DNA of 64,000 nt. Source: an uncultured delta proteobacterium. GTDB taxonomy: Bacteria; Desulfobacterota; BSN033; UBA1163. Position 1 is the first letter of the stretch. Each line of letters begins with the position of its first letter. The translations under genes and the position numbers were made by a program. The notes under the pieces were generated by a model that had not been told where the DNA came from, did not search any database, and worked only from the letters and a program-made list of their open reading frames with translations. The stretch is taken from the NCBI GenBank assembly GCA_963739325.1, contig CAVTZZ010000040.1:8478-72477 (forward strand). The letters run 5' to 3'. Positions 27,209 through 58,788 of this stretch are shown here, piece after piece.

Positions 27209-28639
27209 TCAAATGGGTTTGTTTTCTTTCATCCTTTTTTTCATGTACCCCAATGGATCAGGGGCGTAATCTTTCAGATAATCTCCCTCACAATTAATCC
27301 CGGGAAGAGGAGGCACCCAATCGTAGCTCAATAACTCATCTGGATTCCCGTATTTAACGGCTAAGGTTCTGATTTTTGGGTCATCTAATGAGGCAAGTCG
27401 GCCCCTATCCGTAACTTTGATCCAGGTTTCTGTTCCCTGTAATTTTACTTCAAAGGTTGTGAAATAGTTGTGCATATGAATATGGCTGTGAGGGATGTTG
27501 TTTTCTTTGATATATTTGAAAAATACTTCGCCGAAATGCCTTCGAGACCCAAATCCATGATGAAATACGCCCGCCCTATTCCTCTCCGGAAGATTTGAAT
27601 GCGTCCCGTAGACGTTGAACATATCGGAAGTTCTTCTGAACCCTTTTACAGCCGTGCACAATGCAGAATCACAGAACCAGAAGAAACCCTTACTAGGATA
27701 ACCCGGAAAATGAACATTCTTAAACTTATCCATCATTTCCCTTATGACCTCGCCATATTTGCCTCCCCCTTTCACTTCTACAAGAAGTCCGTGTTCAAAA
27801 TAAAGCTCGATCCGCGGGAAATAACCGACATGGTTTGCCGTTCCAGCCAGCACCCCATTGATGTCATGAAAAACCGGAGGCACCATCGGAGCAACTGGAA
27901 CGATGGAGCATTCCTCGGATGTTGCCTGGAAGGCATCAAGAAAAAGATGCCCAGATTTCCAAGCACACATTTCGAACCTTCGCGCCTCCTCTTCGGTCAG
28001 AGAGTATTCTAAATAGGTTCCTTCAGGATCGGTGATCCTTATCTTGGAAGCTTTTCCGACGGCTTCGATAGCGGGTCTCTCAATTTCCTTCCAAAGCTCA
28101 TCAGGAAAAGCCCATGTTTCTGCAATGAACTCCTCCCAGTTGTTAAACAACCAATTCCCCTTAAATTTATTACCATGTTGGCGTAATGCATAGGTCAGGT
28201 GTTTTCTCCCTCCAATGCCAATGAACAGGTTGGTATATTCAGGGTTTTTATCAAGATATTTGCGAACTCCCAGGATTAAATCCTCAGCAAAGGGCATCTC
28301 CTCTGTGCCAGTAGCGCCATACATCATGTCATCGCCTTCTCTCCAACCTTCTTCGACGCTTCGCACTACAGTTTTTTTCCCACTGAGCTCATGCTCATAT
28401 AAGAAATCAACCTTCTCTGCACCTTTTTCTTCCAATCCTTGTATGATTGCCGTCTTCACTAATGGATCCTGATCGGGGTAAGTTACAATGAGATAATTAG
28501 AACCCCTTTTGACAGGCCCCATGGCCACTCTGGTATGTTCTTTGTCGGCCAATTGTCTTGCTCTAGTAAGGCATTCATCTACAGTTGTGGGTTTCTTGTA
28601 CTTTGGAGCACGCGGTACGGGATAACTATAAACTGTCAT
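27209..28639 (-). CDS. Uncharacterised His-rich ~478-aa protein, paralog 1 of 6 (family not recognised)
   Basis: 476 aa with an AAGGAGG Shine-Dalgarno site. It shares these blocks with the other five copies: YPDQD, NNWEEF, ITDPEGTYLEY, VLAGTANH, LVEVKGGGKYG, FWFCDSALCT, NRAGVFHHGFGSRRH, HSHIHMHNYFTTFEVKL, PGINCEGDY and the tail KKRMKENKPI. Confidence 0.85.
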   Translation of the reverse strand: MTVYSYPVPRAPKYKKPTTVDECLTRARQLADKEHTRVAMGPVKRGSNYLIVTYPDQDPLVKTAIIQGLEEKGAEKVDFLYEHELSGKKTVVRSVEEGWREGDDMMYGATGTEEMPFAEDLILGVRKYLDKNPEYTNLFIGIGGRKHLTYALRQHGNKFKGNWLFNNWEEFIAETWAFPDELWKEIERPAIEAVGKASKIRITDPEGTYLEYSLTEEEARRFEMCAWKSGHLFLDAFQATSEECSIVPVAPMVPPVFHDINGVLAGTANHVGYFPRIELYFEHGLLVEVKGGGKYGEVIREMMDKFKNVHFPGYPSKGFFWFCDSALCTAVKGFRRTSDMFNVYGTHSNLPERNRAGVFHHGFGSRRHFGEVFFKYIKENNIPHSHIHMHNYFTTFEVKLQGTETWIKVTDRGRLASLDDPKIRTLAVKYGNPDELLSYDWVPPLPGINCEGDYLKDYAPDPLGYMKKRMKENKPI

Positions 28640-28901
28640 GTACGTATACCTCCTTCGAATATAATTTTAGATGTTAACGAATGACTGGGTTTTCTTCCTT
28701 CACCTAATTGATTCACCATCATTTCCTAATTCTAAGCACGACTAACATAGGGCTCATATTTTGTCAAGGAACTTTGTGTCAATTCAATTAGCCTTTACCA
28801 CGAGATGGCGGCTTCGCAAACTCTGGCAGCCAAAAATGAAAACATAGAACTGTGCCATAGGATCTTTGATTAGTTATCATACATATAACTGGTTATAGTT
28901 T

Positions 28902-29910
28902 TTAATGTTCTTTCATATAAAGGGTTTTTGGAATGGTAGGCACTTTTTCCACCCGTAGAGGTTGTCCGATCCCTTTTTCTTGCGCTCTCTGATAAGCGGT
29001 TGCCCCCACAGCAATATATTCGATGGCAGCGTCACCAGACAGAAACAGAGTTATCTCTTTCTCATTCTTTCTTCCCTGCTTTTTACCAACTATAATCTCT
29101 CCGAGTTCACCATAGAGTTGCTCTGCGGTAAGGGAACCCTCACTGATTGGGATGAGTAATTCCCCATCCTCTTTTAACGCCCTGACTTTCGAATCTGCAA
29201 CCACCTTACTTCTCTGGAGACAAACACTGTCGACTTCTCGGCGATCTGGGTAATGGGCTCCAATCTTATTGATGTGGGTTCCCGGTTCTACGAGATTCCC
29301 GTCAAAGACAGGTTTCTTTGAGTTGGTGGTGGTGGCAATGATCTCGCTTCCCTTCACTGCTTCCTCAGGGGAATCGACAGCGACGATATCGATGGGATAT
29401 AGCTTCCTCATTTCTTCGCAATATTGTTCTCGGTGCATCTTATGAGGGCTATAGACTTTTACCAATTCAAGATTTCGTACACAAGAGACCGCCATGAGTT
29501 GCGACCTTGCTTGCCTTCCCGATCCAAAAATACCCATGACTTTCGAGTCCTTCTTGGCCAAATACTCGGTTGCAACAGCACTTAATGCTCCTGGCACTAA
29601 CCAACCAATCCAGTCTGATTCAATAACGGCTTGAAGATCCCCTGAAGTTCGTGTCAAAGATTAAAATCACCTTAACAAAACTCCCTTTTCCACTGGGGGA
29701 AGACGCTTTAATTCCGGCAACTCCCATTTCTGAAAGAGAGGCAGGCACAATCCTTAAAAATCTCCGCGACTGAAGAGTATCCAATGAGACCCTCGGGAGC
29801 ATGGTTGTTTTCCCTTTTCCCATTTGGTGATAGGCGTTTTCAATGACGTCAATCAAATCCTTCATACTGAACAGAGGCATGACCTCTCGACTGGAAAGAA
29901 AGATTGCCAT
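28902..29910 (-). CDS. Ornithine cyclodeaminase/mu-crystallin family protein; split by a 1-nt frameshift near 29645
   Basis: ORFs 29620..29910 and 28902..29657 together align end to end with the intact paralog 49482..50492 (IFDTN|GDLQAVIESDWIGWLVPGALSAVAT, GIFGSGRQARSQL). Confidence 0.85.
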
Positions 29911-29965
29911 AGATTGTTCCTTTCATTCAGGCGGGGAGTTTTGAAGCATTCCTTATTTTTTTATC

Positions 29966-30730
29966 TCAGGTACCTCTGTTGAGATAGATTTTTCCCCAAG
30001 TAGGTGCATCGATCGATTCGCCGGTAAGATCCATGGGCCCCTGACTCGCCAAGAAAACTGCAACCTTCTTAATATCATCGGGCCTTCGCATCTTGGCCCT
30101 CATCTCTGGAGATTTACTGAGATGCACTCGGGTATCTGTGGTTCCTGGTCTGAGGGTATTCACATTGATATTGAATTTATTCAACTGGACAGCCAGAGCA
30201 ATGGTAAACATTTCTACTCCCGCCTTGGAGACATTGTAAACAAGACTGCGAGTCGGGGAAATGAACGAATCTTCCTTCTTTTTTACTCCCGACCCTGAGG
30301 ACATATTGATAATATTACCACTCTTTTGCTTTATCATTTGAGGCACGACTGCCTGAGCGCAGAGGAACATCCCTTTCAGGTTGATATTGATGGTACTATC
30401 CCAATCCTCCTCTTTGATCTGAGTAATAAAATCCGTGGGGCCAGCCACCGCCGCATTATTCATCAGGATGTCAATCCTTTCAAACTCAGAGAGAGTCTTT
30501 TTTACCATCTCCTCAACTTCTCTTCTCTTTGAAACATCTGTTCTTATGGACAAGGTTCTTACCTTAAAAGCTGCTGCTTCCCTGGCAACGGCATCAATTT
30601 CCGATTGATTGCGCGATACGACGACTACATTGGCCCCTTCTTCAGCAAAAGCTAAGGTAATGGATCTGCCTATTCCCGTACCACCCCCCGTGATGATCGC
30701 TACTTTCCCCTTAAGTTTATTCTGGTTCAT
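29966..30730 (-). CDS. Short-chain dehydrogenase/reductase (SDR)
   Basis: LKGKVAIITGGGTGIGRSITLAFAEEGA, NNAAV and SSGSG...YNVSKAG. It is a close paralog of 23031..23795. Confidence 0.9.
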   Translation of the reverse strand: MNQNKLKGKVAIITGGGTGIGRSITLAFAEEGANVVVVSRNQSEIDAVAREAAAFKVRTLSIRTDVSKRREVEEMVKKTLSEFERIDILMNNAAVAGPTDFITQIKEEDWDSTININLKGMFLCAQAVVPQMIKQKSGNIINMSSGSGVKKKEDSFISPTRSLVYNVSKAGVEMFTIALAVQLNKFNINVNTLRPGTTDTRVHLSKSPEMRAKMRRPDDIKKVAVFLASQGPMDLTGESIDAPTWGKIYLNRGT

Positions 30731-30845: not shown

Positions 30846-32621
30846 TCATAATTTTCCTATTGTGTCCTCCAAAAGGCGATTAGCTGAATTCAAAGCATCG
30901 GATATCTTGTTACGCTCTCGTAAGAGAAAGGTACGGAAAGCTTTGTATTCTTCACTCTCTCTCTTCAGCGAATTGAGTTCTTCTAAACGCTGAAGCGTTA
31001 AGATCGGTTTAAATTTGGTTCCCGCAGGGTCTTGCCCATATTTGCCAGCCTTCGTTGAAAAAACAGGAAGAAGAATTCGACTGAGCTGCATCAGACATCT
31101 GTTGATTGTTTCTAATTTTTTCTTAAAGGATCTATCCGTTCTCTTCTTTCCAAAAGTCGATAGGTTTTTCTCGATCATCTGATTAAGAACCTTTGCCTTC
31201 TTCTCCAATTCTCCCGTCTGAATGATCAAGGGATTCAGATCGAATATCGATTCACTTTTGAGCTGCAGATCCATCAACCCTTCCTTAAATTCTTTTGCCA
31301 GACTTACAAACTCAAAAGGCAAGACCGGATTGTTGCAAAGCCTTAAAATGGAAACGGCATGAGCTTTAAAAGGAATCTGTATCACGTCTATATCGACCTT
31401 ATCCAGTGTATCTTCTGCGGTATGACTGTACCACAAGGGGTCCTCATCCAAGTCCTCAGGCGTTTCAAAAAAGGTTCCTCCCATAAAAGAGGGAAGCCCG
31501 ACTCCCCAGAAACTCTGGTCCCCGCTTTTCCGAACCCTTTTACTTTTGACCTTTAAACCGAGAACCTCTTTAATGACATTTTCTTGAAATTTCCTTATCT
31601 CTTCGCTGTTTCTTGCCTCGAAACCTGAAGAACCCTTTCTTCCAAGTCCGTCCATGGCCAAATAGGCTACCGCGTGATCCCGAATATCATCCCAGAAATT
31701 ATCCACGTACCAAGTAGACCCTCCAAAGGTCCCCTGTTCATGAGCAATCCACCAGCAAAACCTAACCCCTCTGTTCAGCTTCTTTCTATACTTGGAAAAG
31801 ACTCTGGCCATCTCCAGTTTTATGGAGTTTGAGACAGCATTATCACTGGCCCCCAAAAACCAACTGCAATAATGACCTCCCACAAGAACAAACTTTTCAG
31901 GGTCTCCTGTTCCCCTAATACGACCTACAGGAAGCCTTACTTTTTTATAACCGCACCATGCATCAGCTTTTAATCTTACGATGACACGGCCTTTTTGTAC
32001 TAAATTCAATAGATACTTTCCATCTTCATTGCACACGGAAATGACAGGTGGACTAAGATTCTTATCGATTGTCTCCGGAGTCGGACTCCCCCAGACGGTG
32101 CGAGGTTGAACTACGATCATCGCTTGCGTTTTTCCAGGAGTGACATGGACCTGGGCTGCAGCACCCTTTTCTCGGGCAATACGAGCTGCATCGTTCCGGC
32201 TTTCTCTGCTGCCAATGATCAGCACAACCTTACCCCTCACATCCACTTCTTCGTCATTTTTCTCAACCTCCTCTCCCAAGTAAATAAGCTCGGCCTCCAA
32301 ACCTTCTGGAGGTGTTGGGATGATGAAAACGCCGGACAAACAGGGAAAAGATTTCTGGACCGGAGAGAGGACTTCAAGACTCGCTTCCCCAGGCAGACTG
32401 ATATAAGCATCGAATTCATAAATTTCTGATTCCACTCCATACTCGTCCAATCTTGCCTTAATATATTTTGCTGCTTTCAGTTCATCTTCTGTCCCTGCAC
32501 GGCGGATGAGGGTTGACAAATATTCCAAGTGCTTTCGAATCTCATCCCTCGAATATTCTGACAATACTTTTTTCTCAAACTCTTTTTCCTCAGCTTCTAC
32601 CCAAGAGAACTGTTTTTCCAT
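30846..32621 (-). CDS. M28-family metallopeptidase-like protein with PA domain and transferrin-receptor-like C-terminal domain (GCPII/NAALADase-like architecture)
   Basis: 591 aa. It has a PA-like insert (VDVRGKVVLIIGSRESRNDAARIAREKGAAA), the M28 core GGHYCSWFLGASDNAVS ... WWIAHEQGTFGGSTWY ... AYLAMDG ... YSHTAEDTLDKVD, and a helical C-terminal region. Confidence 0.75.
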   Translation of the reverse strand: MEKQFSWVEAEEKEFEKKVLSEYSRDEIRKHLEYLSTLIRRAGTEDELKAAKYIKARLDEYGVESEIYEFDAYISLPGEASLEVLSPVQKSFPCLSGVFIIPTPPEGLEAELIYLGEEVEKNDEEVDVRGKVVLIIGSRESRNDAARIAREKGAAAQVHVTPGKTQAMIVVQPRTVWGSPTPETIDKNLSPPVISVCNEDGKYLLNLVQKGRVIVRLKADAWCGYKKVRLPVGRIRGTGDPEKFVLVGGHYCSWFLGASDNAVSNSIKLEMARVFSKYRKKLNRGVRFCWWIAHEQGTFGGSTWYVDNFWDDIRDHAVAYLAMDGLGRKGSSGFEARNSEEIRKFQENVIKEVLGLKVKSKRVRKSGDQSFWGVGLPSFMGGTFFETPEDLDEDPLWYSHTAEDTLDKVDIDVIQIPFKAHAVSILRLCNNPVLPFEFVSLAKEFKEGLMDLQLKSESIFDLNPLIIQTGELEKKAKVLNQMIEKNLSTFGKKRTDRSFKKKLETINRCLMQLSRILLPVFSTKAGKYGQDPAGTKFKPILTLQRLEELNSLKRESEEYKAFRTFLLRERNKISDALNSANRLLEDTIGKL

Positions 32622-32672: not shown

Positions 32673-33881
32673 TTATTTCTTGAAAACCTCATCCTCTCTT
32701 GTTTTTGCAGGGATAAATATCAAAAGAAGGAACCCACCCACTATGGCAAAGCTGGCCCCAACGGAAAAGGCTACGGCAGCATTATACTTCTGCCATAGGA
32801 TTCCTAAAAGTAAACTGGCAGGTAATTGAGGAAAATTGACAAGGAAAGTGTGAATTCCATAAGCTGAACCCCGGGCTTCTTTAGGAACCAGATCAGCAAC
32901 CAAAGCCTTTTTAACCCCTTCTGTCATTCCATAAAACAATCCATAAATTCCAAAAATGACCCAGGCTTGAGTCACCGAGGTAATAAAAGCAAATCCAAAA
33001 TAACTGATTCCATAAAATATCCATCCGATGGCCAGCACATTTCTCCGGCCAAATTTGTCAGAAAGGATTCCTCCAGGCATCGAACTGATCGTCTTGAATA
33101 TGTTGGAGAAAAGATAAATGATGGGAATAAGTTCCAGGGATAAACCGAGATCTTTAACCCTTAAGAGCAGAAAAGCATTACTGGAATTGGCCATTTCAAA
33201 AACAGTAGTTGCTATTAAAAAGAGCTTAAAGTTTCTATTGAACTGCTTTAGATTGAAACGGCGATTTACTGAGGGTGTCTCCGTCTGGGATAAGTCCCTT
33301 GCTTTTTCAGAAACTACAAAGGTCAAAATGCCGATGGCAAGAAAGGCGGGGATGGAGGCAATCCAGAAAAGAGCTCGGTAATCGTTGTTCAGATAGATCA
33401 ACAAGGAAAAGGCTAACAAAGGACCCAGGATTGACCCCACGTTATCCATGGAGCGGTGAAGGCCAAAACCTTTACCCCGGTTTTCAGGGGTGCAAGATTC
33501 GGCGATCAGTGCATCCCGGGGAGGTACTCGGATTCCTTTACCCACTTTTTCAACAAACCTTACTAATAGGATATGCCACCCGATAGTGGCTACAGCAATG
33601 AGTGGGCGGGTCACTGCAGACAGGCTATAGCCCCACAACAACAAAGTCTTTCGCTTCTTGATTTTGTCGGAAAGCCAACCAGAAACAAGATTTAGGACAC
33701 TGGAGGTGCTTTCGGCAATGCCCTCCACTAAACCCACAAAGGCCGTACTTGCCCCCAATACCGACCTCAGGTACAAGGGAAGTAGAGGGTAAATCATCTC
33801 CCGACTGACATCGGTCAAGAAGCTGGTCGAACCTAAGGCAAAAACATTTTTGGAGATTCCCTTAAAAAAAGAGGTTCTCAT
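32673..33881 (-). CDS. MFS transporter
   Basis: 402 aa, about 12 hydrophobic segments. GWLSDKIKKRK (loop 2-3) and GILSDKFGRRN (loop 8-9) are MFS signature loops. Confidence 0.8.
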   Translation of the reverse strand: MRTSFFKGISKNVFALGSTSFLTDVSREMIYPLLPLYLRSVLGASTAFVGLVEGIAESTSSVLNLVSGWLSDKIKKRKTLLLWGYSLSAVTRPLIAVATIGWHILLVRFVEKVGKGIRVPPRDALIAESCTPENRGKGFGLHRSMDNVGSILGPLLAFSLLIYLNNDYRALFWIASIPAFLAIGILTFVVSEKARDLSQTETPSVNRRFNLKQFNRNFKLFLIATTVFEMANSSNAFLLLRVKDLGLSLELIPIIYLFSNIFKTISSMPGGILSDKFGRRNVLAIGWIFYGISYFGFAFITSVTQAWVIFGIYGLFYGMTEGVKKALVADLVPKEARGSAYGIHTFLVNFPQLPASLLLGILWQKYNAAVAFSVGASFAIVGGFLLLIFIPAKTREDEVFKK

Positions 33882-33954: not shown

Positions 33955-34659
33955 TTAATCCCAAAAAATACCAGCCTTTCGCCCTTTCTCCAAGAAATAT
34001 GACCAACCCTTTTCAATGCTACGAGACGTAAAGGTATCGGCAGTCGCCCGCTTCACTTGATCCTCTGAAAGGGGAATGGGTTTGCCCAGAATAGATGCCT
34101 CCACAAAAAGTCTGGCATTCTCTTCCAAATGACAAGAGACTAAAAATGCGGCTTCCACACCCGATTCTGCAATCACGGCTCCATGCCCCTTCATAATCAC
34201 AGCCTTTGAGCTTCCGAGGACCTTCGCCATGCTCAAACCTTTTTCTATGGTTTCGATGTGTTCCGCATGCGGATAGACAGGGACTACGGGTCCAAAGATC
34301 GCCCCATGTTGACAGACCGGAACAAGATCCTTGCCTGCGATACTCGGTAGAATTGAATAATGGGGATGAAGGTGTATCACGCTATTCACATCTTCCCTAA
34401 CTTGATATACCGAAGCGTGAATAGGGGTTTCACTTGGGGGATTAAGTTTTCCTCCAACCCATTCTCCTTTTAATGTCACCTCAGCCATGTCACCAGGAGT
34501 CACTTCGGTACGGGAAAGTTGTTGGGGATGAATAAAGAAAACCTGACTATTAGGAATTCTGGCACTGATGTGGCCCGAGAAGTCAATCAGACCCAACATC
34601 TCTAAGAGACGGCATGCACGGGCTAACTTATCTTTTAAAACATCTTCATCTTTCTCCAT
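33955..34659 (-). CDS. Class II aldolase/adducin-domain protein
   Basis: 234 aa. FSGHISARIP, PIHASVYQVREDVNSVIHLHPHY and MKGHGAV fit the class II aldolase (FucA/AraD-like) metal-binding pattern. It is a near-identical paralog of 42832..43536. Confidence 0.85.
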   Translation of the reverse strand: MEKDEDVLKDKLARACRLLEMLGLIDFSGHISARIPNSQVFFIHPQQLSRTEVTPGDMAEVTLKGEWVGGKLNPPSETPIHASVYQVREDVNSVIHLHPHYSILPSIAGKDLVPVCQHGAIFGPVVPVYPHAEHIETIEKGLSMAKVLGSSKAVIMKGHGAVIAESGVEAAFLVSCHLEENARLFVEASILGKPIPLSEDQVKRATADTFTSRSIEKGWSYFLEKGRKAGIFWD

Positions 34660-34763: not shown

Positions 34764-36254
34764 TCAAACGACTGACTTCTTGCGTTTTTTGTATAGCCTC
34801 TCAATATAAGGCCACAAAATTATTGTTAAAATACAAAGGAAGAGAATTAAACTGGGGATGCGAGTAAAAAATACTAATATCCCTGTTTTAGAAAGGGCGA
34901 GGGTTTGAAAAAAACTCTTCTCAGCAATCGGACCTAATATTAATCCCAGTACCAAAGGGATGGGGTGATAGCCATGTTTCCTCATATAATAGCCCAAGAC
35001 GCCAAAGAAGATGACTACCAATATGTCCTCCCAGTATTCGCGTGCATTATAGGAGGCTACAAGGCATAAAAGGATAACGATTGGGGAGATAAGCTCCGAT
35101 CGTAACTTCGTTAGCTTTTCTACAATAGGGGTGAAGCCTACTGCCGAGATGACACTAACGACATGAGCGATAAAAAAGACACATATAATAAAATAGACTA
35201 AATCAATGCGGGTCTTCATAAGCTGTGGCCCCGGAGAAATTCCATGCAGAGCTAATGCCGCCATCAGTATCGCCATAGCAGTGCTACCTGGGATGCCAAT
35301 GGTAATGGTGGGAAGGAAATCCCCCCCCGCACATGCATGAAGAGCAATATCCCCTGCAATGACCCCCCGCACATCCCCTTTGCCGAATGTTTCTGGGTTC
35401 TTACATGTCTTAGTGGCTTGGGCGTAGGACACAAATCCGGCCACTGCACCACCAGCACCGGGTGCAATCCCTATTACCCAGGCAATCAGGCAACTTCGAA
35501 TCATAAGAGACCAATTCTTAAAGCATACAAGGATGCCCTCCATAATGCTTCCCGTTAGAGGGACACCTTCGGAAACGATAGAACTTCCTTCCATCCATAG
35601 CTTAATGCCTTCGCTTAATCCCAGCATCCCAAGCATTACAGGTACCATATAGATACCATCTCTGAGATAGTAACTACCAAAGGTAAAACGTGATACTCCG
35701 ACAATAGGGTGGTAACCGATTGTAGCTATGATAATACCAATACAACCGGTTAATACGCCTTTAAGAATCGTTTTTGCCGAAACGGCGGAGATAGTCGCCA
35801 AGCCAAATAAGGCGAGCATAAAAAATTCTGCAGGCCCGAATATCAAAATGATCTGATACATCACGGGCATAAAAACAAGGAGAGAACCGCAGGAGAAAAT
35901 TCCCCCCAAAATCGAAACAGTAGCCGAGGCAGCAATAGCTGTCCGTGCCTTTCCTTTCTTGGCCATGGGATAGCCATCAATCAGTGTAACGGCATTAGGG
36001 TTATCGCCCGGGATATTGAAAAGTATTGCGGTAAGAGAGCCGCCAAATTTTGAGGTAGCATAGATAGAGACAATGAGTGCAAAAGCTGGGTAAACATCCA
36101 TTTTCCAGGTGAAAGGAATCATCAGGATCATCGCTTGCACTCCACCGATACCAGGCAAAATCCCCACAACCATTCCGATGAGGACACCAATAGCCATCAT
36201 CAATAAATTCTGTCCTTGAAAATTAGCATAAAAGGCTGCTATGAATTGTTCCAT
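34764..36254 (-). CDS. tctA: TTT large permease TctA
   Basis: It starts MEQFIAAFYANFQGQNLLMMAIGVLIGMVVGILPGIGG and carries SKFGGSLTAILFNIPGDNPNAV. The start ATG 36254 has AGGAG 8 nt upstream; the ORF track extends to 36281. Confidence 0.9.
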   Translation of the reverse strand: MEQFIAAFYANFQGQNLLMMAIGVLIGMVVGILPGIGGVQAMILMIPFTWKMDVYPAFALIVSIYATSKFGGSLTAILFNIPGDNPNAVTLIDGYPMAKKGKARTAIAASATVSILGGIFSCGSLLVFMPVMYQIILIFGPAEFFMLALFGLATISAVSAKTILKGVLTGCIGIIIATIGYHPIVGVSRFTFGSYYLRDGIYMVPVMLGMLGLSEGIKLWMEGSSIVSEGVPLTGSIMEGILVCFKNWSLMIRSCLIAWVIGIAPGAGGAVAGFVSYAQATKTCKNPETFGKGDVRGVIAGDIALHACAGGDFLPTITIGIPGSTAMAILMAALALHGISPGPQLMKTRIDLVYFIICVFFIAHVVSVISAVGFTPIVEKLTKLRSELISPIVILLCLVASYNAREYWEDILVVIFFGVLGYYMRKHGYHPIPLVLGLILGPIAEKSFFQTLALSKTGILVFFTRIPSLILFLCILTIILWPYIERLYKKRKKSVV

Positions 36255-36267
36255 TTTATTCTCTCCT

Positions 36268-46928: not shown

Positions 46929-47939
46929 TTAAAGGCCATATTTTTTGAAAACCGGGATCCATTTCTCTATATCTTCGATTGAAGCCTTGAGATCCTCCTT
47001 TAATTCTTTCCCGAAGAGAGGCTGTTCCACATCCGCTTTCCTTTTTTTACAGAAGTCTATCCATCCAGGATCGGCAAGCATCTTTTTTCCCGCAGCCGTA
47101 AGGAGACGCTCACGTTCCGGGTCAAGGTTTGGTGGCCCCATAAACATCCTGTTCACCTTCCTTATATATTTCAGACACTCGGGGAATCCCTTTTCCACGA
47201 TGGTAGGCACCCACGGAAGAATTTTTGCTTCTGTGAAGGATACAAGGGTATTAACTTCTTTTGCTTCGCATACGGTACTCACTGAGTCATAAGAAACAAG
47301 GGCAGCATCAGCATCCCCCCTGATGACCGCATTAATGACATCGGCCGTCCCTTCCATGGAGACAATCTTTGCCGGTATCTTACTTATCTCTACCGCGTAG
47401 ATGCAGTCCAGATGCGCCGTTGTACCGAATTGAGGTATGATGAAAGTAATCGGTCCTTTTTTAGATTTAGCTACCAATTCCTCCCATGTGGCAATCCCTT
47501 TTTTGTTACTAATAAAGACACGAACGGTCCGGGTGATTGAATAAAGCCAACTATATTCTCTGGGATCAAAGGCAATTTTTTGGGATCCATAGAGCATTGC
47601 GTAAAGAGCTCCAGGATTAAAATCCCCATAAGTATAGCCATCGGGTCTGGCATCTTTAAAAAGATACTCATAGGCTTGTAACCCACTGGCCCCAGACATA
47701 TTCTTAACTTTTACCTCCCCACCCTTTGCACCAGGAGAGAGTTCCTTTAAATACTTGGTCATATAAGGGGCTGCCATTCTCGCAAAAATATCAAATCCAC
47801 CCCCCGGAGCAGAATTACAGATGAGAGTTATGTCTTTCGACGGATAGACATCCTGGGCCATAGCTCCTAAGACCAATAGACTCAAGGAGCTCAAAATAAT
47901 AACTGCAGTCAACATTCCTATAAAATTTATCCTTTTCAT
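46929..47939 (-). CDS. tctC: TTT substrate-binding protein TctC
   Basis: 336 aa with a signal peptide. It is the intact counterpart of the disrupted copy at 36988..37994. Confidence 0.9.
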   Translation of the reverse strand: MKRINFIGMLTAVIILSSLSLLVLGAMAQDVYPSKDITLICNSAPGGGFDIFARMAAPYMTKYLKELSPGAKGGEVKVKNMSGASGLQAYEYLFKDARPDGYTYGDFNPGALYAMLYGSQKIAFDPREYSWLYSITRTVRVFISNKKGIATWEELVAKSKKGPITFIIPQFGTTAHLDCIYAVEISKIPAKIVSMEGTADVINAVIRGDADAALVSYDSVSTVCEAKEVNTLVSFTEAKILPWVPTIVEKGFPECLKYIRKVNRMFMGPPNLDPERERLLTAAGKKMLADPGWIDFCKKRKADVEQPLFGKELKEDLKASIEDIEKWIPVFKKYGL

Positions 47940-48015: not shown

Positions 48016-49455
48016 CTAAATCGGCTTGTTTTCTTTCATACGTTTTTTTAGATAACCTAACGGATCTGGGGCATAATCTTTAAAATAATCTCCTTCGCAG
48101 TTGATCCCAGGAAGAGGAGGTTGCCAGTCATAGCTCAGGAGTTCATTTGGATCCCCGTATTTTACTGCAATGGCTCTGATCTTTGGGTCATCCATACAGG
48201 TAAACCAACCTTTATCAACAATTTTATACCAGTAGTCGGTACCTTGTATCTTTATCTCGAAGGTTACAAAGTAATTGTGCACATGGATGTGGCCCGTCGG
48301 CAAATTGTGCTCTTTGGCATATTTCCCGTATTCATCTCCGTGCTTTCGTGAACCAATTCCCATATGAAAGATACCTGCTCTATTCCGTTCGGGGGTATTT
48401 GGCATTGCCCAGTAGGAATTAAACATATCAGAAGATCTCCTAAATGATTTTACGGTTGTGCATAATGCACAATCGCAAAACCAGAAGTAGCCTTTATCAG
48501 GATAAAATGGCCAGTGAGCATCCTTATATCTATCCATCATTTCTCTTATCCCCTCACCATATTTACCGCCACCCTTTACCTCCACAAGTCGTCCGTGCTC
48601 AAAATAGAGCTCTATACGGGGAAAGAAACCCTTATGATTTGCGGTCCCTGCTAAGACTCCATTATAATCAGGAAAAACCGGAGGAACTTTTGTTGAAACC
48701 GGTACGACTGCACTTCCCTCCGCTGTTGATTGATGGGGGCAAAAATAAAGGTGGCCACTCCGCCCTGCGGTCATTTGCCATCTCTTGGCCTCTTCAGAAG
48801 TCAAAGTGTATTCTAAGTGTGTGCCTTCAGGGTCAGTGATCTTTACTGCAGAGGCTTTTCCTAAGGCTTCGAGAAGTCTTCTCTCGATTTCTACCGAGAG
48901 TTCATCCGGATAGACCCAAGCTTTAGATAAAAATTCTTCCCAATTGTTAAATAACCAGTTATTTCTAAACTTACTGCCGTGCATTTCAAGCAATCGGACC
49001 ATTTGTGGCCTCCCTCCTGCAGCCAAAAATAGACCTGTAATGTCATGTTCATCTAAATACTTGCGTATCGCTGCTCCCATGTCCATACCCGTTAGCCCAT
49101 CTCTTCTGCCTACGGCACCTGATGCCATATTCTGCTTCAGCATCTCAACCTCTTTCCAGCCATCTTCGACACTAACTGGCTTAACTTCCTTTGCTCCTAA
49201 TAATTGAACCAAATCTATGAAATCTGCCTTCTCAGCACCCTCTTCCTCAAGGGCTTGGATAATGGCTTCTTTTACATACTTATCCTGGTCCGGGTAAGTG
49301 ACGATAAGTAATGTGTCGCCTTTCTTTACTGGACCCATTGCTGCCCTGCCGTGTTGTTTCTTTGCCAACAATCTTGCCTGGGGAAGGCAATCTTCTATAC
49401 TTGTTGGTTTTCTATAGCTCGGATTACGTGGTGATGGATAGTTGTACACTGCCAT
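48016..49455 (-). CDS. Uncharacterised His-rich ~478-aa protein, paralog 5 of 6 (most divergent copy)
   Basis: 479 aa. It keeps the invariant blocks in variant form (FWFCDCALCT, NRAGIFHMGIGSRKH, GHIHVHNYFVTFEIKI, KKRMKENKPI). Confidence 0.85.
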   Translation of the reverse strand: MAVYNYPSPRNPSYRKPTSIEDCLPQARLLAKKQHGRAAMGPVKKGDTLLIVTYPDQDKYVKEAIIQALEEEGAEKADFIDLVQLLGAKEVKPVSVEDGWKEVEMLKQNMASGAVGRRDGLTGMDMGAAIRKYLDEHDITGLFLAAGGRPQMVRLLEMHGSKFRNNWLFNNWEEFLSKAWVYPDELSVEIERRLLEALGKASAVKITDPEGTHLEYTLTSEEAKRWQMTAGRSGHLYFCPHQSTAEGSAVVPVSTKVPPVFPDYNGVLAGTANHKGFFPRIELYFEHGRLVEVKGGGKYGEGIREMMDRYKDAHWPFYPDKGYFWFCDCALCTTVKSFRRSSDMFNSYWAMPNTPERNRAGIFHMGIGSRKHGDEYGKYAKEHNLPTGHIHVHNYFVTFEIKIQGTDYWYKIVDKGWFTCMDDPKIRAIAVKYGDPNELLSYDWQPPLPGINCEGDYFKDYAPDPLGYLKKRMKENKPI

Positions 49456-49481: not shown

Positions 49482-50492
49482 TTATTTCCTTAGTTTTATG
49501 TAGAGGGATGGGGGAACAGCGGGATCTCTTCCCACATGAAGTTCTTGCCCGATTCTCTCCTTTAAAGCTATCTGATAAATACGCGCCGCAATCGCAACAT
49601 ATTCAATGCCTATGCCACCGGACAAAAATAGGGTGATCTCTTTTTCATCCTTTCTTCCCTGTTTCTTGCCAGCAATAACTTCTCCGAGTTCTCCGTATAT
49701 ATGGTCTGGCTTAATGAGTCCTTCCTTGATCGGAATGAGCACCTCGCCTTCTTCTTTGAGAACCCTCTCTTTAGAATCAGCGACTAATTTGCTTCTCTGG
49801 ACACTGACACTATCCAATTCACGCCGGTCTGGGTCGTGTGCTCCAATCGCATTGATGTGGGTGCCCTGCTCTATTAAATTTCCGTCAAAGACTGGTGTGG
49901 ATGAGTTGCTGGTAGTAGAAATGATTTCGCTTCCCTTCACCGCTTCTTCAGGTGAATCCACCGGGAGGACATTTAAATTTAGCAAATTTCTCATCTCTTC
50001 ACAGTATTGATCCCGGTGCTTTTTTTGAGGACTGTAGACCTTTATCAATTCGAGATTTCGCACAAGAGCGACGGCGGGAAGCTGCGATTTTGCTTGTCGT
50101 CCTGAACCAAAAATGCCCATGACCTTGGCTTCTTTTTTAGCCAAATATTTGGTTGCCACGGCGCTTAATGCCCCTGGAACCAACCAACCGATCCGATCTG
50201 ATTCAATGACGGACTGAAGATCACCTGTATTCGTATCGAAGAGAAAAATGACCTTTGTAAAAGTCCCTATTCCGCTTACCGAGTAGGCATGGATTCCCGC
50301 CACCTCCAATTCTGAGAAAGAGGCGGGTAATATCTTCAGGAATCCTGGTTTTCGAGACGTATCGAGCTTAATTCGAGGCACCACGGTGGCGCTCCCTTGT
50401 CCCATCTGCCGGTAAGCGTTCTCAATCGTCTCAACATAATCTTTCATACTGAGGAGAGGCTCTATCTCTTGACTGGAAAGGAAAAGGACCAT
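49482..50492 (-). CDS. Ornithine cyclodeaminase/mu-crystallin family protein
   Basis: 336 aa. GWLVPGALSAVATKYLAKKEAKVMGIFGSGRQAKSQL (Rossmann GxGxxA), VYSPQKKHR and INAIGAHDPDRRELD are typical of the OCD_Mu_crystall family. Confidence 0.85.
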   Translation of the reverse strand: MVLFLSSQEIEPLLSMKDYVETIENAYRQMGQGSATVVPRIKLDTSRKPGFLKILPASFSELEVAGIHAYSVSGIGTFTKVIFLFDTNTGDLQSVIESDRIGWLVPGALSAVATKYLAKKEAKVMGIFGSGRQAKSQLPAVALVRNLELIKVYSPQKKHRDQYCEEMRNLLNLNVLPVDSPEEAVKGSEIISTTSNSSTPVFDGNLIEQGTHINAIGAHDPDRRELDSVSVQRSKLVADSKERVLKEEGEVLIPIKEGLIKPDHIYGELGEVIAGKKQGRKDEKEITLFLSGGIGIEYVAIAARIYQIALKERIGQELHVGRDPAVPPSLYIKLRK

Positions 50493-50613: not shown

Positions 50614-52110
50614 TCAAACCTTGGGAGACGACATCTTAGGCCTTTTGTAGATCCTCTCGATATAGGGCCAGAAAATCACTGCTAAAACACAGAGGAAGAT
50701 AACCAGACTGGGAATTCGGGTAACAAATACTAATAGACCGTTCCTCGAAAACGAAAGGGCTTGAAAAAAACCGTTTTCGGCAATCGGGCCTAAGACGATT
50801 CCGAGAACGAGCGGGATGGGATGATATCCATTTTTTCTCAAATAGTAGCCAAAGATACCGAAGAGGGTGGCTACCATCATGTCCTGCCAATACTCCCGAC
50901 CAATATAAGAACCGATCAGACATAAAACAATAACGATCGGTGAGATAATCTCTGCTTGAAGTTGGGTCAGCTTTTCCATCCCACGGGAGAAGCCTACTGC
51001 TAATATAACACTGATACAGTGTGCAAAAAAGAGAGTAAAGATAATAAGATAGACCAAATCAAGGTGAAATTTTACAATTTGTGGCCCCGGAGAAATTCCG
51101 TGTAGAGCGAATGCTCCCAGTAGTACTGCCATTGTGCTGCTCCCTGGGATACCCATCGTAATGGTCGGAAGAATATCTCCGCCCGAACAGGCATGGAGTG
51201 CAGTATCACCAGCAATAACTCCACGTACATCTCCTTTACCAAATGTCTCCGGGTTTTTACAGGTCTTAACCGCCGACGCATAAGACACAAATCCGGCCAC
51301 CCCGCTACCGGCGCCTGGCGCTACACCTATCACCCAGGCAATCAAACAGCTTCTAACAAAGAGAGACATATTCTTAAAAACTGCCATGATCCCTTCCCAA
51401 ATGCTTCCGCTCAGAGGAACACCCTTGGCAACAATAGAGCTTCTTTCCATCCATAGCTCGATCGCCGTGCTCATTGCCAGCGCTCCCAGAACCACAGGAA
51501 TCATATGAATCCCGTCCCTGAGATAGTATGTTCCAAGGCTATATCGAGACTGTCCGACCAATGGGTGGAAACCAATCGTGGCAATCAGGACACCAAGACC
51601 ACCGGTAATGAGGCCCTTACCGATTGTTTTCGATGAAACAGCAGCGATTGCTGAGAGTCCAAATAAGGCTAACATAAAAAATTCCGCAGGCCCGAATAAT
51701 AAGATGATTTGGTACATCACGGGCAAAAAGACAAGCACACTAATTGCAGAGAAAAGTCCCCCAAGAATTGAAACGGTGGCAGAGGCTGCAATGGCTGTTC
51801 TGGCTTTTCCCTTTTTCGCCATTGGAAAACCATCAATCAGAGTCACAGCGTTTGGATTATCGCCTGGAATATTAAAGAGGATAGCGGTTAAAGAACCACC
51901 AAATTTCGATGTGGCGTAGATGGAAACAAGAAGTATAAATGCTCGGGTGGCCTCCATCTTCCAGGTAAATGGAACCATCAGGGCGATCGCATGTACCGAA
52001 CCGATCCCGGGTAAAACTCCTACGACCACTCCAATGAGGGTTCCAACCAGCATAAACGCAACATTCGGCCATTGGAAAAGAGAAACTAAGGTATTGATAA
52101 ACAATTCCAT
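50614..52110 (-). CDS. tctA: TTT large permease TctA
   Basis: 498 aa with the same family blocks (LPGIGSVHAIALMVPFT, SKFGGSLTAILFNIPGDNPNAV). Confidence 0.9.
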   Translation of the reverse strand: MELFINTLVSLFQWPNVAFMLVGTLIGVVVGVLPGIGSVHAIALMVPFTWKMEATRAFILLVSIYATSKFGGSLTAILFNIPGDNPNAVTLIDGFPMAKKGKARTAIAASATVSILGGLFSAISVLVFLPVMYQIILLFGPAEFFMLALFGLSAIAAVSSKTIGKGLITGGLGVLIATIGFHPLVGQSRYSLGTYYLRDGIHMIPVVLGALAMSTAIELWMERSSIVAKGVPLSGSIWEGIMAVFKNMSLFVRSCLIAWVIGVAPGAGSGVAGFVSYASAVKTCKNPETFGKGDVRGVIAGDTALHACSGGDILPTITMGIPGSSTMAVLLGAFALHGISPGPQIVKFHLDLVYLIIFTLFFAHCISVILAVGFSRGMEKLTQLQAEIISPIVIVLCLIGSYIGREYWQDMMVATLFGIFGYYLRKNGYHPIPLVLGIVLGPIAENGFFQALSFSRNGLLVFVTRIPSLVIFLCVLAVIFWPYIERIYKRPKMSSPKV

Positions 52111-52122: not shown

Positions 52123-52737
52123 TTAAATGAGGCCGAGCGACGTTAAGATAGGCTCAAGCATAAGACCAAAGTCCGCTGGAGCCTCTAACAATTTGTAGAG
52201 AAGAAGATAAATGATGAAATACATAGAGGCAAGGGTTATTAAAAGAGCTCCTATTTTTCTTTGGCCATAATAATAATAGCTACCTGCAATTGCAAAAAAG
52301 GTTCCCACAATATAGCCAAAGAGAAGGAATGCGGCAAAGCAGCCAATCAGCCCAATGAAAGCCTTCACTTCGTTACGGAATGTTTTTTCCTGGGTGACCT
52401 CTTCATAGTGCCCCTTTAACACCCCTTCCTCAATTTTTTCCTTCATACTATCAAATTCTCCTGCAAGACCTGCCTCTTTAAATTCCCCGATCTTGCTTTT
52501 AGGAAAAATAATATGGAAGAGGCGCATTCCACTTAATATCGCTGTAAACAAACCGATGAGCATGGGTACATCCCTTGCCTCGGGTTTGTATTGAAAACTT
52601 CCCAGAAAAAAATAGAGGCTAATAAGAAAGATAGGAAGGATGACCACAAGCTCGCCGCGGAGTTTCTTCAATGCTTTCGTACTTAAATCAAGCCCTTTCC
52701 CCTTAGAATCGGTGTTCATAAGAGTCTCCTTTGGCAA
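52123..52737 (-). CDS. TctB-position small membrane protein with acidic loop (atypical TctB-like)
   Basis: 204 aa. RLFHIIFPKSKIGEFKEAGLAGEFDSMKEKIEEGVLKGHYEE. Confidence 0.6.
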   Translation of the reverse strand: MPKETLMNTDSKGKGLDLSTKALKKLRGELVVILPIFLISLYFFLGSFQYKPEARDVPMLIGLFTAILSGMRLFHIIFPKSKIGEFKEAGLAGEFDSMKEKIEEGVLKGHYEEVTQEKTFRNEVKAFIGLIGCFAAFLLFGYIVGTFFAIAGSYYYYGQRKIGALLITLASMYFIIYLLLYKLLEAPADFGLMLEPILTSLGLI

Positions 52738-52795: not shown

Positions 52796-53806
52796 TTAAA
52801 GTCCGTATTTTTGGAACACCTGAATATTTCCCAGGGTGGCATTAATATACTTCATTATCTCTGCTTCTTGCTCCTTGTCGTAAACAGGAGCCAACTCATT
52901 TCCAGTCTTTTCGCACCAAGCCTGAAACTCCGGATCGGCAACCATCTTCTTGAATATAGCAATGATCGTGGCCTTGGCCTTTGGGTCCAGTTTGGGTGGG
53001 CCGATGATATTTCTTCCTTTTCCTCCTATGAAGTCCAAACATTTAGGATACCCCACCTCTATGATGGTAGGGACATTGGGTACCAGCCTCTCATGGGTGA
53101 TGCTAACCAGGAAATTGACCTCTCCGCTATCGATAAGGGTCCTGATCGCCGCATAGTCCATGAGGGCAAGATCAGCGTCCCCTCTTATGAGGGCACCAAC
53201 CGTTACAGATGACCCGCCTGTGCTCGTAATCTTTCCTGGTAATCCAACGACCTCCTTAAACCAAATTGTTTCCATATGCTCGGATGACCCCACCGTTGAA
53301 CTTGCAATGATAGGAGGCAGCTTCTTAGCCGACGCGATCATCTCCGCGAATGTTTTCGGTCCATTTTTCTTGCTGACAACAACCCGAATTGTCTTGGTGA
53401 ATGCGGCCACCCAGGTAAAATCCTTAATATTAAATGGCAGTTTTTCAGAACCATAAATAAACTTGTACATGTCTGCTCGATTAAAATCCGAGATCGTATA
53501 GCCATCGGGTTTTGCGTCTTCATGCATGTAAATCACCGGTTTTGCCCGGCCGCCACCGGCCATATTCTTTACCTTCATCTCCCCTCCCTTCGCACCAGGA
53601 ACAACGTCCTTCACCTGTTTTGTAAAAAAGGGGCTCATTCCACGGGCGAAAGTATCAAATCCACCTCCAGGGTTAGAACCGCAGATGTAGGTTATGTCTT
53701 TCGCAGGATAGATTTCCTGGGCCATAACTCCCGGGGTCAAATAAATAATGGAAATGAAGAGAAAAGTTCCCGCTACCCATCCCAACTTGAGCAATTGTTT
53801 TATCAT
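52796..53806 (-). CDS. tctC: TTT substrate-binding protein TctC
   Basis: MIKQLLKLGWVAGTFLFISIIYLTPGVMAQEIYPAKDITYICGSNPGGG. The start ATG 53806 has AGGAAGGAG 7 nt upstream; the ORF track extends to 53884. Confidence 0.9.
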   Translation of the reverse strand: MIKQLLKLGWVAGTFLFISIIYLTPGVMAQEIYPAKDITYICGSNPGGGFDTFARGMSPFFTKQVKDVVPGAKGGEMKVKNMAGGGRAKPVIYMHEDAKPDGYTISDFNRADMYKFIYGSEKLPFNIKDFTWVAAFTKTIRVVVSKKNGPKTFAEMIASAKKLPPIIASSTVGSSEHMETIWFKEVVGLPGKITSTGGSSVTVGALIRGDADLALMDYAAIRTLIDSGEVNFLVSITHERLVPNVPTIIEVGYPKCLDFIGGKGRNIIGPPKLDPKAKATIIAIFKKMVADPEFQAWCEKTGNELAPVYDKEQEAEIMKYINATLGNIQVFQKYGL

Positions 53807-53901
53807 TTTTTTTCTCCTTCCTAAAAGATATAAGCTCTCTTGTCCAAAGAGCTCTATCTCATGTTTTTTTGAGTTTCTACTCATGCCTCCATCAACATTG
53901 T

Positions 53902-55329
53902 TTAAATTGGTTTATTCTCTTTCATTCTTTTTTTAAGATACGCCATCGGGTCAGGGGCATAGTCCTTCATATAATCACCTTCACAATTGATACCAGGTAG
54001 CGGTGGAACCCAGTCATAACTTAGTAGTTCATCCGGATCTCCATATTTGACAGCAAGGGTTCTAATCTTGGGATCATCCAAAGAGGTAAGCCGACCCCTG
54101 TCCGTTACTTTAAGCCAGTGTTCGGTGCCTCGCAGTTTTACCTCAAACGTTGTGAAATAATTGTGGACATGGATATGACTATGGACGATCTGATTCTCTT
54201 TAATATATTTACTAAATTCTGGACTATGTCTCCGGGATCCAAATCCGTGGTGAAATACCCCGGCCCTATTCCTTTCCCCAAGGTTTGGAGCTTGCCAGTA
54301 ACAATTAAACATATCGGAGGTCCGCCTGAAAGATTTTACCATGGTGCATAAGGCAGAATCGCAAAACCAGAAGTAACCCTTTCTGGGGTATTGTGGAAAG
54401 TGAACATCCTTATTTTTCTCCATCATTTCTCGAATGATGTCCCCGTACTTTCCACCGCCTTTTACTTCCACCAGCAGGCCACGCTCGAAATAGAGCTCCA
54501 TTCGAGGGAAAAATCCTTGATGATTTGCTGTCCCAGCCAGAACACCGTTTGGGTTATGAAAAACCGGGGGATTCGTTAAATCATACCGTACCTGGGAACA
54601 TTCGTCCGATGTTGCCTGAAGGGGATCCAAAAAGAGGTGGCCAGACTTCCACGCACACATTTGAAACCTGAGCGCCTGTTCTTCTGTTAGATCGTACTCT
54701 AAGAACGTACCTTCAGCGTCAGTAATCCTCACCTTGGAGGCTTGGCCAATGGCTTCTATCGCTGGCCTCTCAATTTCGATCGAAAGCTCATCTGGAAAGG
54801 CCCAGGTCTTGGCGACAAATTCCTCCCAATTATTAAATACGTAATTATTTTTAAATTTATCACCATGGTTACGGAGCGCAAAGGTCGCATGTCTTCGCCC
54901 TCCCGATCTGATGAATAAACCGTTATATTCAGGATGTTTATCAAGGTATTTGCGTACAGGCCCCATTAACTCTTCAATAAATGGGGTTTCCTCAGTCCCA
55001 GGTTCTCCTTTTGCCATATTGTCGGCTTCAGTCCAGCCGTTTTCCACGCTTTTAATTACAGGCTTTTGACCTGTTATCTCATGCTCGTACACGAAATCAA
55101 CCTTTTCGGCGCCCTCTTCTTCTAAGGCTTGGTTTATTGCTTCCTTGATGTATTTGTCTTGATCAGGAAATGTAACGATAAGTATCTGATCCCCCCTTTT
55201 TACCGGACCCATTGCTGCTCTGCTATGAGTTTTTTTTGCCATCTCCCTGGCTCGAGGGAGGCAATCTTCTACACTTGTTGGTTTCTTGTAATTTGGACTG
55301 CATGGCGACGGATAACTATACACTGGCAT
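53902..55329 (-). CDS. Uncharacterised His-rich ~478-aa protein, paralog 6 of 6
   Basis: 475 aa with the same conserved blocks (ITDAEGTFLEY, NRAGVFHHGFGSRRH, HSHIHVHNYFTTFEVKL, KKRMKENKPI). Confidence 0.85.
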   Translation of the reverse strand: MPVYSYPSPCSPNYKKPTSVEDCLPRAREMAKKTHSRAAMGPVKRGDQILIVTFPDQDKYIKEAINQALEEEGAEKVDFVYEHEITGQKPVIKSVENGWTEADNMAKGEPGTEETPFIEELMGPVRKYLDKHPEYNGLFIRSGGRRHATFALRNHGDKFKNNYVFNNWEEFVAKTWAFPDELSIEIERPAIEAIGQASKVRITDAEGTFLEYDLTEEQALRFQMCAWKSGHLFLDPLQATSDECSQVRYDLTNPPVFHNPNGVLAGTANHQGFFPRMELYFERGLLVEVKGGGKYGDIIREMMEKNKDVHFPQYPRKGYFWFCDSALCTMVKSFRRTSDMFNCYWQAPNLGERNRAGVFHHGFGSRRHSPEFSKYIKENQIVHSHIHVHNYFTTFEVKLRGTEHWLKVTDRGRLTSLDDPKIRTLAVKYGDPDELLSYDWVPPLPGINCEGDYMKDYAPDPMAYLKKRMKENKPI

Positions 55330-58786: not shown

Positions 58787-58788
58787 TC

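Follow-up and report, generated by a model that had tools for sequence, protein, structure and literature searches.

We analysed a 64,000-nucleotide stretch of DNA (the window) from an uncultured delta proteobacterium (GenBank assembly GCA_963739325.1, contig CAVTZZ010000040.1, positions 8,478 to 72,477 of the forward strand), which encodes six paralogs of a protein of about 478 residues that we call X. Judging from a structural model and from profile comparisons, X is predicted to be a distant branch of the two-domain aminopeptidase-T-like fold of the M29 aminopeptidases, NicX and CgnB/CgnE. The genes lie in a 37-kb co-directional array together with genes for tripartite tricarboxylate transporters (TTT). 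X is an uncharacterised new branch of a known fold: the literature searched describes neither the family nor TTT systems led by X, and it is silent on the ligand set of this branch, on its amplification and on its systematic association with uptake systems. The functional reading that we favour, which we would put a little below an even chance, is that X is an O2-independent metallohydrolase taking the first step on an imported acid.

Six paralogs and their predicted fold

The copies are numbered X1-X6 by ascending coordinate, and residue numbers are those of X4. All of them lie on the minus strand. X6 (53902-55329, 475 aa) is the first gene of unit 1 of the array and X5 (48016-49455, 479 aa) the first gene of unit 2. 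X4 (41131-42567, 478 aa, the copy that was modelled), X3 (39654-41093, 479 aa) and X2 (38091-39530, 479 aa) form a tandem trio (38091-42567) in unit 3, and X1 (27209-28639, 476 aa) is the first gene of unit 4. A previous reading of the window, made from the sequence only, had listed six paralogous open reading frames (ORFs) on this strand; each was recovered at exactly these coordinates, with a length of 475-479 aa and a full-length alignment. The conserved blocks quoted in that reading were present as well, except that X6 has FPDQD and X4 has NNWEEL. Over the end-to-end alignment the mean column identity was 81%, with pairs ranging from 63 to 85%. The members of the trio were 80-85% identical among themselves and X1 and X6 were 75% identical, while X5 was the most divergent copy.

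Sequence annotation did not place X in any characterised family, as the sequence-only reading had supposed. X1-X6 gave no match to Pfam at E<=1, including the M29 (PF02073) and NicX (PF26233) models, and no match to NCBIfam. Among 68 diverse relatives, no Pfam domain was found in any and none matched M29 at E<=0.1. Sequence searches of the PDB, with a single sequence and with two profiles, returned noise alone (e.g. alphaRep, RNase H and NUDIX proteins), and tblastn of X against 72,556 plasmids gave no match. The family itself is large. We found 195 relatives in 5.8 billion clustered proteins, all unnamed or 'hypothetical', and an exhaustive profile search of 1.84 billion representatives gave 543 clusters (50% identity) at E<=1e-3, of which 143 reached E<=1e-30. 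The names of ten distant cluster representatives were 'hypothetical' or absent. One relative, P0108, carried a precomputed PF26233 tag that was not reproduced at E<=1.

We built an AlphaFold2 model of X4 from a 41-sequence alignment, with a pLDDT of 92.4 and a pTM of 0.91. A Foldseek search of this model against the PDB returned eight matches at E<=1e-3, and these were solely PepS/AmpS, NicX and CgnE. The PepS/AmpS (M29) matches had E values of 8e-11 to 8e-10, with a probability of 1.0 for 4ICS, 4ICQ, 1ZJC and 4ICR. NicX matched at E ~1e-9 and gave the best TM-scores (0.54-0.58 on the target), and CgnE matched at E 6.5e-4 with TM-scores of 0.32-0.46. For hhalign we used a 68-sequence profile of the X family as the query and the PDB sequences of NicX, AmpT, PepS and AmpS. 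The catalytic domain of M29 was matched at 95.6% (E 1.2e-8) and the NicX alignment at 94.5% (E 7e-8), the latter over 316 columns joining X4 40-427 to NicX 18-350. When the M29 and NicX profiles were compared directly, with small alignments, the value was 2.3%; the X family profile connects to both. The M29/NicX fold that had been guessed by eye is thus borne out by the Foldseek and hhalign results. Across the superfamily, the LDDPxxR motif (X4 419-427) is nearly universal.

The likeness to each relative is partial. NicX/Hpo, the 2,5-dihydroxypyridine 5,6-dioxygenase (PF26233; 7CUP, 7CN3), has the two-domain fold and the metal-binding strand in common with X, and NicX R293 aligns with X R355. 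NicX acts within carboxylate or heterocycle catabolic gene sets, and X is linked to such sets. However, X exceeds NicX by about 130 residues and has a highly conserved, family-specific C-terminal extension (428-478), its hosts are mostly strict anaerobes, and it has a putative second metal sub-site that NicX lacks. The M29 aminopeptidases (AmpT 2AYI, PepS 4ICQ/4ICS, AmpS 1ZJC; PF02073) share the fold and the 'PGTDL' and 'HxxFG' motifs, and the positions of their bridging carboxylate, one His and the HxD strand are occupied in X. By contrast, X has neither their first Glu ligand nor their catalytic Tyr, carries His for the Asp of HxD and Arg for the FDENA acids, and their N-terminal domain was not aligned to X by hhalign; the Pfam match is also missing. 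CgnB and CgnE, peptide-binding proteins of crocagin biosynthesis (6ZSU), are distant members of the fold. The six dinuclear Zn ligand positions of CgnB are the best template for E354, H362, D326 and the HxHxH strand of X, but the structural match is far weaker (E 6.5e-4), these proteins have about 300 residues, and their duplicates lose the metal site. CgnB and CgnE sit in a context of ribosomally synthesised and post-translationally modified peptide (RiPP) genes, whereas X is surrounded by transporters and catabolic enzymes. One further likeness, to dihydrophloroglucinol cyclohydrolase (an anaerobic ring hydrolase encoded beside a short-chain dehydrogenase/reductase, SDR), was rejected because that enzyme belongs to the isatin-hydrolase 'cyclase' family, which has another fold.

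Putative metal site and possible reactions

For the mapping of ligands we used the hhalign alignments together with the published ligands of NicX and CgnB. For AmpS we take the metal ligands to be E253, E319, H348, H381 and D383, a numbering that was checked against the 1ZJC sequence. NicX binds Fe(II) through H265, S302, H318 and D320 and positions its substrate with Leu104/His105 and Glu177/His189 (PMC7910607). The dinuclear Zn site of CgnB is formed by E161, E252 (bridging), E274, H280, H291 and D293, and duplicates among CgnB/CgnE homologs often lose catalysis and lose the metal site (PMC10070186). The catalytic Tyr of M29 sits in an 'EEHYHD' motif (PMC7023490).

X4 D326 falls on the bridging carboxylate position (M29 E319, NicX H265), which is Glu in 48 and Asp in 11 of the 68 relatives. 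H362 aligns with M29 H348 within the common HxxFG motif and is kept in 64/68, and E354, which is Glu or Asp in 53/68, probably corresponds to the E274-type ligand position of CgnB. The HxD strand aligns with H388-I-H390-M-H392, and AmpS H381 and D383 thereby fall on two of these three His, which means that the M29 ligand positions are occupied by a different residue set. In the hhalign register, H390 and H392 lie on the H and D of HxD, while the H-x-D-x-E of distant relatives speaks for H388 and H390. Under either register, H388, H390 and H392 are on one face of the strand. D326, E354, H362, H388, H390 and H392 are invariant in X1-X6, and the alignments suggest that they converge in three dimensions. 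With both M29/CgnB dinuclear sub-sites populated, a dinuclear centre is therefore plausible in X. The sequence-only reading had proposed a metal centre built from invariant His, Cys and Asp residues. His, Asp and Glu do lie on the metal positions of M29, NicX and CgnB, but Cys330, although invariant in X1-X6, is Gly in 50/68 relatives and lies outside the conserved site. A guess based on spacing, in which H272 would replace the first M29 Glu and NicX H265 would correspond to M29 H348, was dropped since hhalign contradicted it. E340 and A342 of the M29 'FDENA' motif align with R355 and R357, an acid-to-base switch; together with R145, R337 and R426 these may line a pocket whose many arginines would match the carboxylates of a substrate.

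The pairing with uptake systems was quantified for 42 X genes from 30 non-redundant loci, with the other genes of those loci as controls. The next annotated gene encoded a solute-binding protein for 57% of the X genes and for 20% of the controls. The safest mechanistic statement is that X would be a metalloenzyme acting first on the solute from the adjacent uptake system. We infer a catabolic role for X, and likewise its metal content, its hydrolytic chemistry, its substrate class and its place in the pathway. In the mechanism that we propose, TctC and TctBA would import an anionic substrate, and X would be a cytoplasmic metalloenzyme whose metal site stays at the M29/NicX position but draws on another, His-rich set of ligands: D326 (Glu in most relatives), E354, H362 and H388-x-H390-x-H392, with H272 and H231 nearby. 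R145, R337, R355, R357 and R426 would hold the substrate carboxylates where M29 holds the peptide N-terminus. The reaction, presumably the first cytoplasmic step and independent of O2, would most likely be hydrolysis of a C-N bond (amide or lactam) by metal-activated water. The product could then pass to the second enzyme of the module, which is a dehydrogenase of the ornithine cyclodeaminase/mu-crystallin (OCD) type, a lyase or decarboxylase of the class II aldolase type, or an SDR, and possibly onward to the downstream thiamine diphosphate (ThDP) decarboxylase and aldehyde:ferredoxin oxidoreductase (AFOR).

Hydrolysis without O2 is favoured because the hosts are anaerobes, because both sub-sites of a dinuclear centre of the hydrolase type are retained, and because the iron and substrate residues of NicX are lost. 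The hosts include Thermodesulfobacteriota, Syntrophales, Dehalococcoidia and Archaeoglobi, and an AFOR is encoded in the window and a glycyl-radical enzyme on a related contig. For the substrate class, the best reading is an imported (hetero)aromatic or N-containing carboxylate. The set of neighbours leans towards hydroxylated aromatic or N-heteroaromatic polycarboxylates, a lean that rests on three unrelated families with known hydroxyaryl-acid decarboxylases and on molybdenum (Mo) hydroxylases. The M28-like peptidase, SBP_bac_5, OCD and Glu dehydrogenase neighbours would also allow a substrate that resembles a peptide or is an amide conjugate.

Several observations weigh against O2-independent hydrolysis of an imported acid. 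For the HxHxH strand, hhalign and the distant relatives disagree by two residues on the register. At the position of the first M29 ligand (AmpS E253), X has the non-conserved Q242/E243, and at that of the catalytic Tyr (AmpT Y352) it has R369, which varies across the family; M29-type peptide hydrolysis is therefore not simply transferable to X. The UbiD, xanthine-dehydrogenase (XDH)-type, cupin, PrpD and class II aldolase neighbours fit hydrolysis, ring cleavage, decarboxylation or isomerisation. In NCBIfam typing, none of the class II aldolase, OCD, SDR, ThDP enzyme, AFOR and M28 proteins reached a curated cut-off, nor did any of the XDH subunits, UbiD proteins or cupins, and the substrate class is thus not fixed by the accessory enzymes. 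Finally, a binding protein occurred within 5 kb of 76% of the X genes and of 68% of the controls, and the adjacency statistic is weakened because genes for binding proteins abound in the genomes that carry X.

The nearly full-length profile match and the best TM-scores both belong to NicX, which raises the question of whether X is a non-haem iron dioxygenase that uses O2 to cleave a pyridine or benzene ring bearing two hydroxyls, with HxHxH and H362 as a three-His iron site. XDH-type hydroxylases, Amidohydro_2 proteins, UbiD and an isochorismatase-family (NicF-like) gene beside X homologs would agree with it, and aerobic nic/pic gene sets resemble this neighbourhood; the haloarchaeal and Marine Group IV hosts may also be aerobic. 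The residues, however, argue otherwise. NicX H265, S302, H318 and D320 align with D326, G364, H390 and H392, and H318 is the only one of the four that is the same residue in X. As for the substrate residues, L104/H105 are replaced by R145/A146 and H189 by A226, and Glu177 aligns with a gap. E354 and H362, on the other hand, are kept in X and fall within the second metal sub-site of M29/CgnB that is missing from NicX. The family is also expanded in strict anaerobes, beside O2-sensitive enzymes, which argues against dioxygenation. We therefore regard the dioxygenase as improbable. A ring-opening enzyme that needs no O2, acting on hydroxylated N-heteroaromatic or aromatic polycarboxylates (pyridine-dicarboxylate type) as an anaerobic counterpart of NicX, is unlikely but has somewhat better prospects. 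If it were true, the XDH-type Mo enzyme would hydroxylate the substrate, UbiD, class II aldolase and Amidohydro_2 decarboxylases would trim it, and X would open the ring hydrolytically; the six paralogs, together with TctC proteins that have diverged from one another, would between them serve a range of related ring compounds.

The homology of the catalytic domain to M29 could also point to a true exopeptidase with altered specificity for imported acidic peptides or amino-acid conjugates. An M28-like peptidase is encoded directly upstream of X in one homologous locus (L003) and inside unit 3, an SBP_bac_5 gene (peptide/opine type) follows an X-like gene in L038, and the OCD-family and Glu dehydrogenase genes and the ThDP enzyme-AFOR pair would fit amino-acid breakdown. 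Nevertheless, this possibility is as improbable to us as the dioxygenase: the catalytic Tyr has become a non-conserved Arg, the acidic FDENA residues have become Arg, the first Glu ligand is missing, the M29 model of Pfam fails even at E<=1, and the frequent neighbours UbiD, XDH-type enzymes and cupins are not related to peptides. Instead of hydrolysing a C-N bond, X might carry out some other non-redox step on the imported acid with the help of its metal; it might, for example, hydrolyse a C-C bond in a reduced ring, or decarboxylate, hydrate or isomerise the substrate. This is a more serious candidate, though still a doubtful one. The ligand set of X is unlike that of both characterised relatives, and families of the decarboxylase type (UbiD, class II aldolase, Amidohydro_2, ThDP enzyme and PrpD) dominate its neighbours together with reductases, but such a reaction has no precedent in a fold whose characterised chemistries are peptide hydrolysis, dioxygenation and peptide binding. 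Least probable by far is that X, like CgnE, has no catalytic role and serves to bind a ligand or as a scaffold. CgnE is related in structure, and duplicated CgnB/CgnE homologs often lose catalysis, but the Cgn duplicates lose their ligands whereas every candidate ligand is kept in X1-X6, and the context of X is catabolic rather than a RiPP cluster.

Transporter modules of the array

The neighbours of the X genes were typed by Pfam. Each X gene, or the trio as a block, had been described as lying upstream of a TTT module followed by an enzyme gene. Pfam confirms this arrangement, but the six copies belong to four transporter units and not to six. Unit 1 reads X6-TctC-TctB-TctA-OCD, unit 2 X5-TctC-TctC-TctB-TctA-class II aldolase, unit 3 X4-X3-X2-TctC-TctB-like-TctA-class II aldolase-MFS (major facilitator superfamily)-M28-like peptidase-SDR-OCD, and unit 4 X1-TctC-TctB-TctA-SDR, followed by a ThDP enzyme, a 4Fe-4S protein and an AFOR. 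The four TctA genes match PF01970 at E 1e-116 to 1e-121, and the five TctC genes downstream of X genes match PF03401 at E 8e-9 to 5e-21. Three TctB genes score 27.3-29.3 bits with PF07331, for which the Pfam cut-off is 29.1 bits, and one alone reaches it; the fourth, TctB-like ORF was not matched. TctA, TctB and TctC are thus encoded together, as expected for a tripartite tricarboxylate transporter, and by Pfam the four membrane systems and five binding proteins of the array are ordinary TctCBA members.

All of these genes are on the minus strand. In unit 1, TctC (52796-53884, PF03401), TctB (52123-52737, PF07331) and TctA (50614-52110, PF01970) are followed by the OCD dehydrogenase (49482-50492, PF02423 E 3.5e-65) as the last gene, whose NCBIfam matches, to models of archaeal alanine dehydrogenase (AlaDH) and P2C/Pip2C reductase, were all sub-threshold. 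Unit 2 contains two TctC genes (46929-47939 and 45842-46846), TctB (45067-45738) and TctA (43564-45054), and ends with a class II aldolase/adducin-family protein (42832-43563, PF00596 E 2e-36) whose sub-threshold NCBIfam matches include 3,4-dihydroxyphthalate decarboxylase. Unit 3 continues from the trio with a frameshift-truncated TctC (37236-37994), the TctB-like gene (36268-36825, without a Pfam match) and TctA (34764-36281), and then with a class II aldolase (33955-34659), an MFS gene (32673-33881), an M28-like peptidase (30846-32621), an SDR (29966-30730) and an OCD gene with a frameshift (28902-29965). The gene order of this tail is repeated in the homologous locus L004. Unit 4 comprises TctC (26095-27033), TctB (25378-26025), TctA (23872-25362) and SDR (23031-23822). 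Directly downstream and co-directional are the ThDP enzyme (20799-22559), the 4Fe-4S protein (20005-20661) and the AFOR (18207-20099), which may be a downstream part of the pathway.

Two genes of unit 3 are disrupted. In the TctC region (36826-37994) the ORF has 252 aa and its C-terminal part runs on in other frames inside the 410-bp gap that precedes the TctB-like ORF. This TctC is 83% identical to that at 46929-47939, far above any other TctC pair. The OCD gene at 28902-29965, upstream of X1, has its first ~95 residues in another frame (29660-29950), and its listed ORF of 251 aa, with a TTG start, covers profile positions 96-313 alone. Its L004 ortholog is intact (333 aa), and the split gene is either a pseudogene or an assembly error. 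A 227-aa ORF (17520-18203, minus strand) between a TctC gene and the AFOR matches the TOTE conflict-system archaeo-eukaryotic primase domain (PF22548, E 2.8e-14) and is an odd occupant of a catabolic array.

The closest pairs agree for X, TctA and TctB, with units 1 and 4 together and units 2 and 3 together; X1/X6 and the TctA genes of units 1 and 4, for instance, are closest pairs. Whole modules were thus duplicated. TctC is the most diverged component, with identities of 41-54%, save for the one 83% pair, compared with 63-85% for X. Promoter and terminator scans over the array gave counts at or below chance expectation, and operon boundaries were not placed by them.

Outside the array, the region from 5210 to 14170 (plus strand) contains two XDH-type Mo-hydroxylase gene sets and an Amidohydro_2 gene (9202-10143) between them, 13-22 kb from X1, and we associate this region with X only tentatively. 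The XDH-type large subunits are split into hammerhead ORFs (5210-5833, 10928-11659) and MoCoBD ORFs (5757-7526, 11724-13163), and one FAD subunit (7584-8174, 196 aa) looks short. A fifth TTT system (TctB-TctA-TctC) with an SDR gene lies at 55669-59580 on the plus strand, divergent from X6 and without an X gene; the Pfam matches of its TctA and TctC are far stronger than those of their counterparts in the X modules. To its right are an MFS gene, another TctC (61172-62206) and a PGA_cap/CapA-like gene (62371-63435), and in the Chloroflexi locus L028 two PGA_cap genes occur among binding-protein genes beside X. The left end of the window (312-3923, minus strand) encodes a UvrD-helicase/PD-(D/E)XK nuclease fusion (955 aa) and a RadC-like JAB protein, both unrelated to X.

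Relatives of X in other genomes

At least nine X copies were found in one Thermodesulfobacteriota metagenome-assembled genome (MAG). Other hosts are Syntrophales, Desulfobacterales and Dehalococcoidia/Chloroflexi among the bacteria and an Archaeoglobi MAG, Marine Group IV archaea and Halobacteriales among the archaea, and an Acidobacteria MAG has a relative at 32% identity. The window DNA is 81-88% identical to a syntenic contig of GCA_040960625.1 (locus L036). In a tree of 41 homologs, each paralog of the window groups with orthologs of two other MAGs that have the same neighbours; for X6, these orthologs are in L036 and L002. The X copies are thus old, maintained lineages. At L036 9007-9754, two small ORFs (80 and 141 aa) take the place of a TctC/X2-like gene. 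One of the two, which clusters with X2 in the tree, is probably the remnant of an X copy. The number of X copies in the array is evidently in flux.

The binding protein beside X differs among groups. Deltaproteobacterial groups, Archaeoglobi and some Chloroflexi have TctC in this place, other Chloroflexi have SBP_bac_1 and Halanaeroarchaeum has NMT1, while SBP_bac_5 adjoins a 40%-identical X subfamily and MFS adjoins X in marine archaea. The proposed link to TTT genes therefore extends to other genomes as a link to uptake, through a solute-binding protein or MFS in general and not through TTT alone, and relatives without such a gene beside them are rare. Among the enzymes, UbiD decarboxylase occurs near X homologs in 6 loci and cupins and MmgE/PrpD in 4 loci each, and XDH-type Mo enzymes directly adjoin X homologs in L013, L015, L017 and L018. 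OCD, class II aldolase, SDR, M28-like peptidase and isochorismatase-family genes also recur, and Glu dehydrogenase genes are found among the neighbours. The Archaeoglobi locus L025 has a ThDP enzyme-AFOR pair beside TctC-X, together with an OCD gene.

Other proteins accompany X in these loci. A 591-aa M28-like metallopeptidase is encoded directly upstream of X in L003 (6193-9425), with a gap of 36 bp; as such a gene is also present inside unit 3 (30846-32621) and in L004, it is a second recurrent metallohydrolase partner. A protein of ~405 aa without Pfam domains stands beside TctC genes in L035 (6616-7839), L038 (593-1810) and L020 (1508-2575). Though divergent, it clearly belongs to the superfamily (hhalign 100%, E 1e-43 for L035) and has a canonical H-x-D-x-E strand; in L035 a TctC pair lies between it and a 478-aa X gene.

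So far, the aminopeptidase-T-like fold has been associated with peptide hydrolysis, pyridine-ring dioxygenation and peptide binding. X adds a large branch that sequence annotation misses, with a distinct His-rich site, amplified up to about nine-fold in genomes of the sulfate-reducer type and tied to solute uptake in bacteria and archaea. The four modules of the window form a comparative set in which one enzyme family is combined with divergent binding proteins and differing second enzymes, and this natural variation makes the function of X directly testable. Once worked out, the substrate of X would assign a function to orphan TTT and other solute-binding-protein systems, and could bring to light an undescribed anaerobic route by which carboxylated compounds of aromatic, heterocyclic or amide type are processed in sediments and groundwater.

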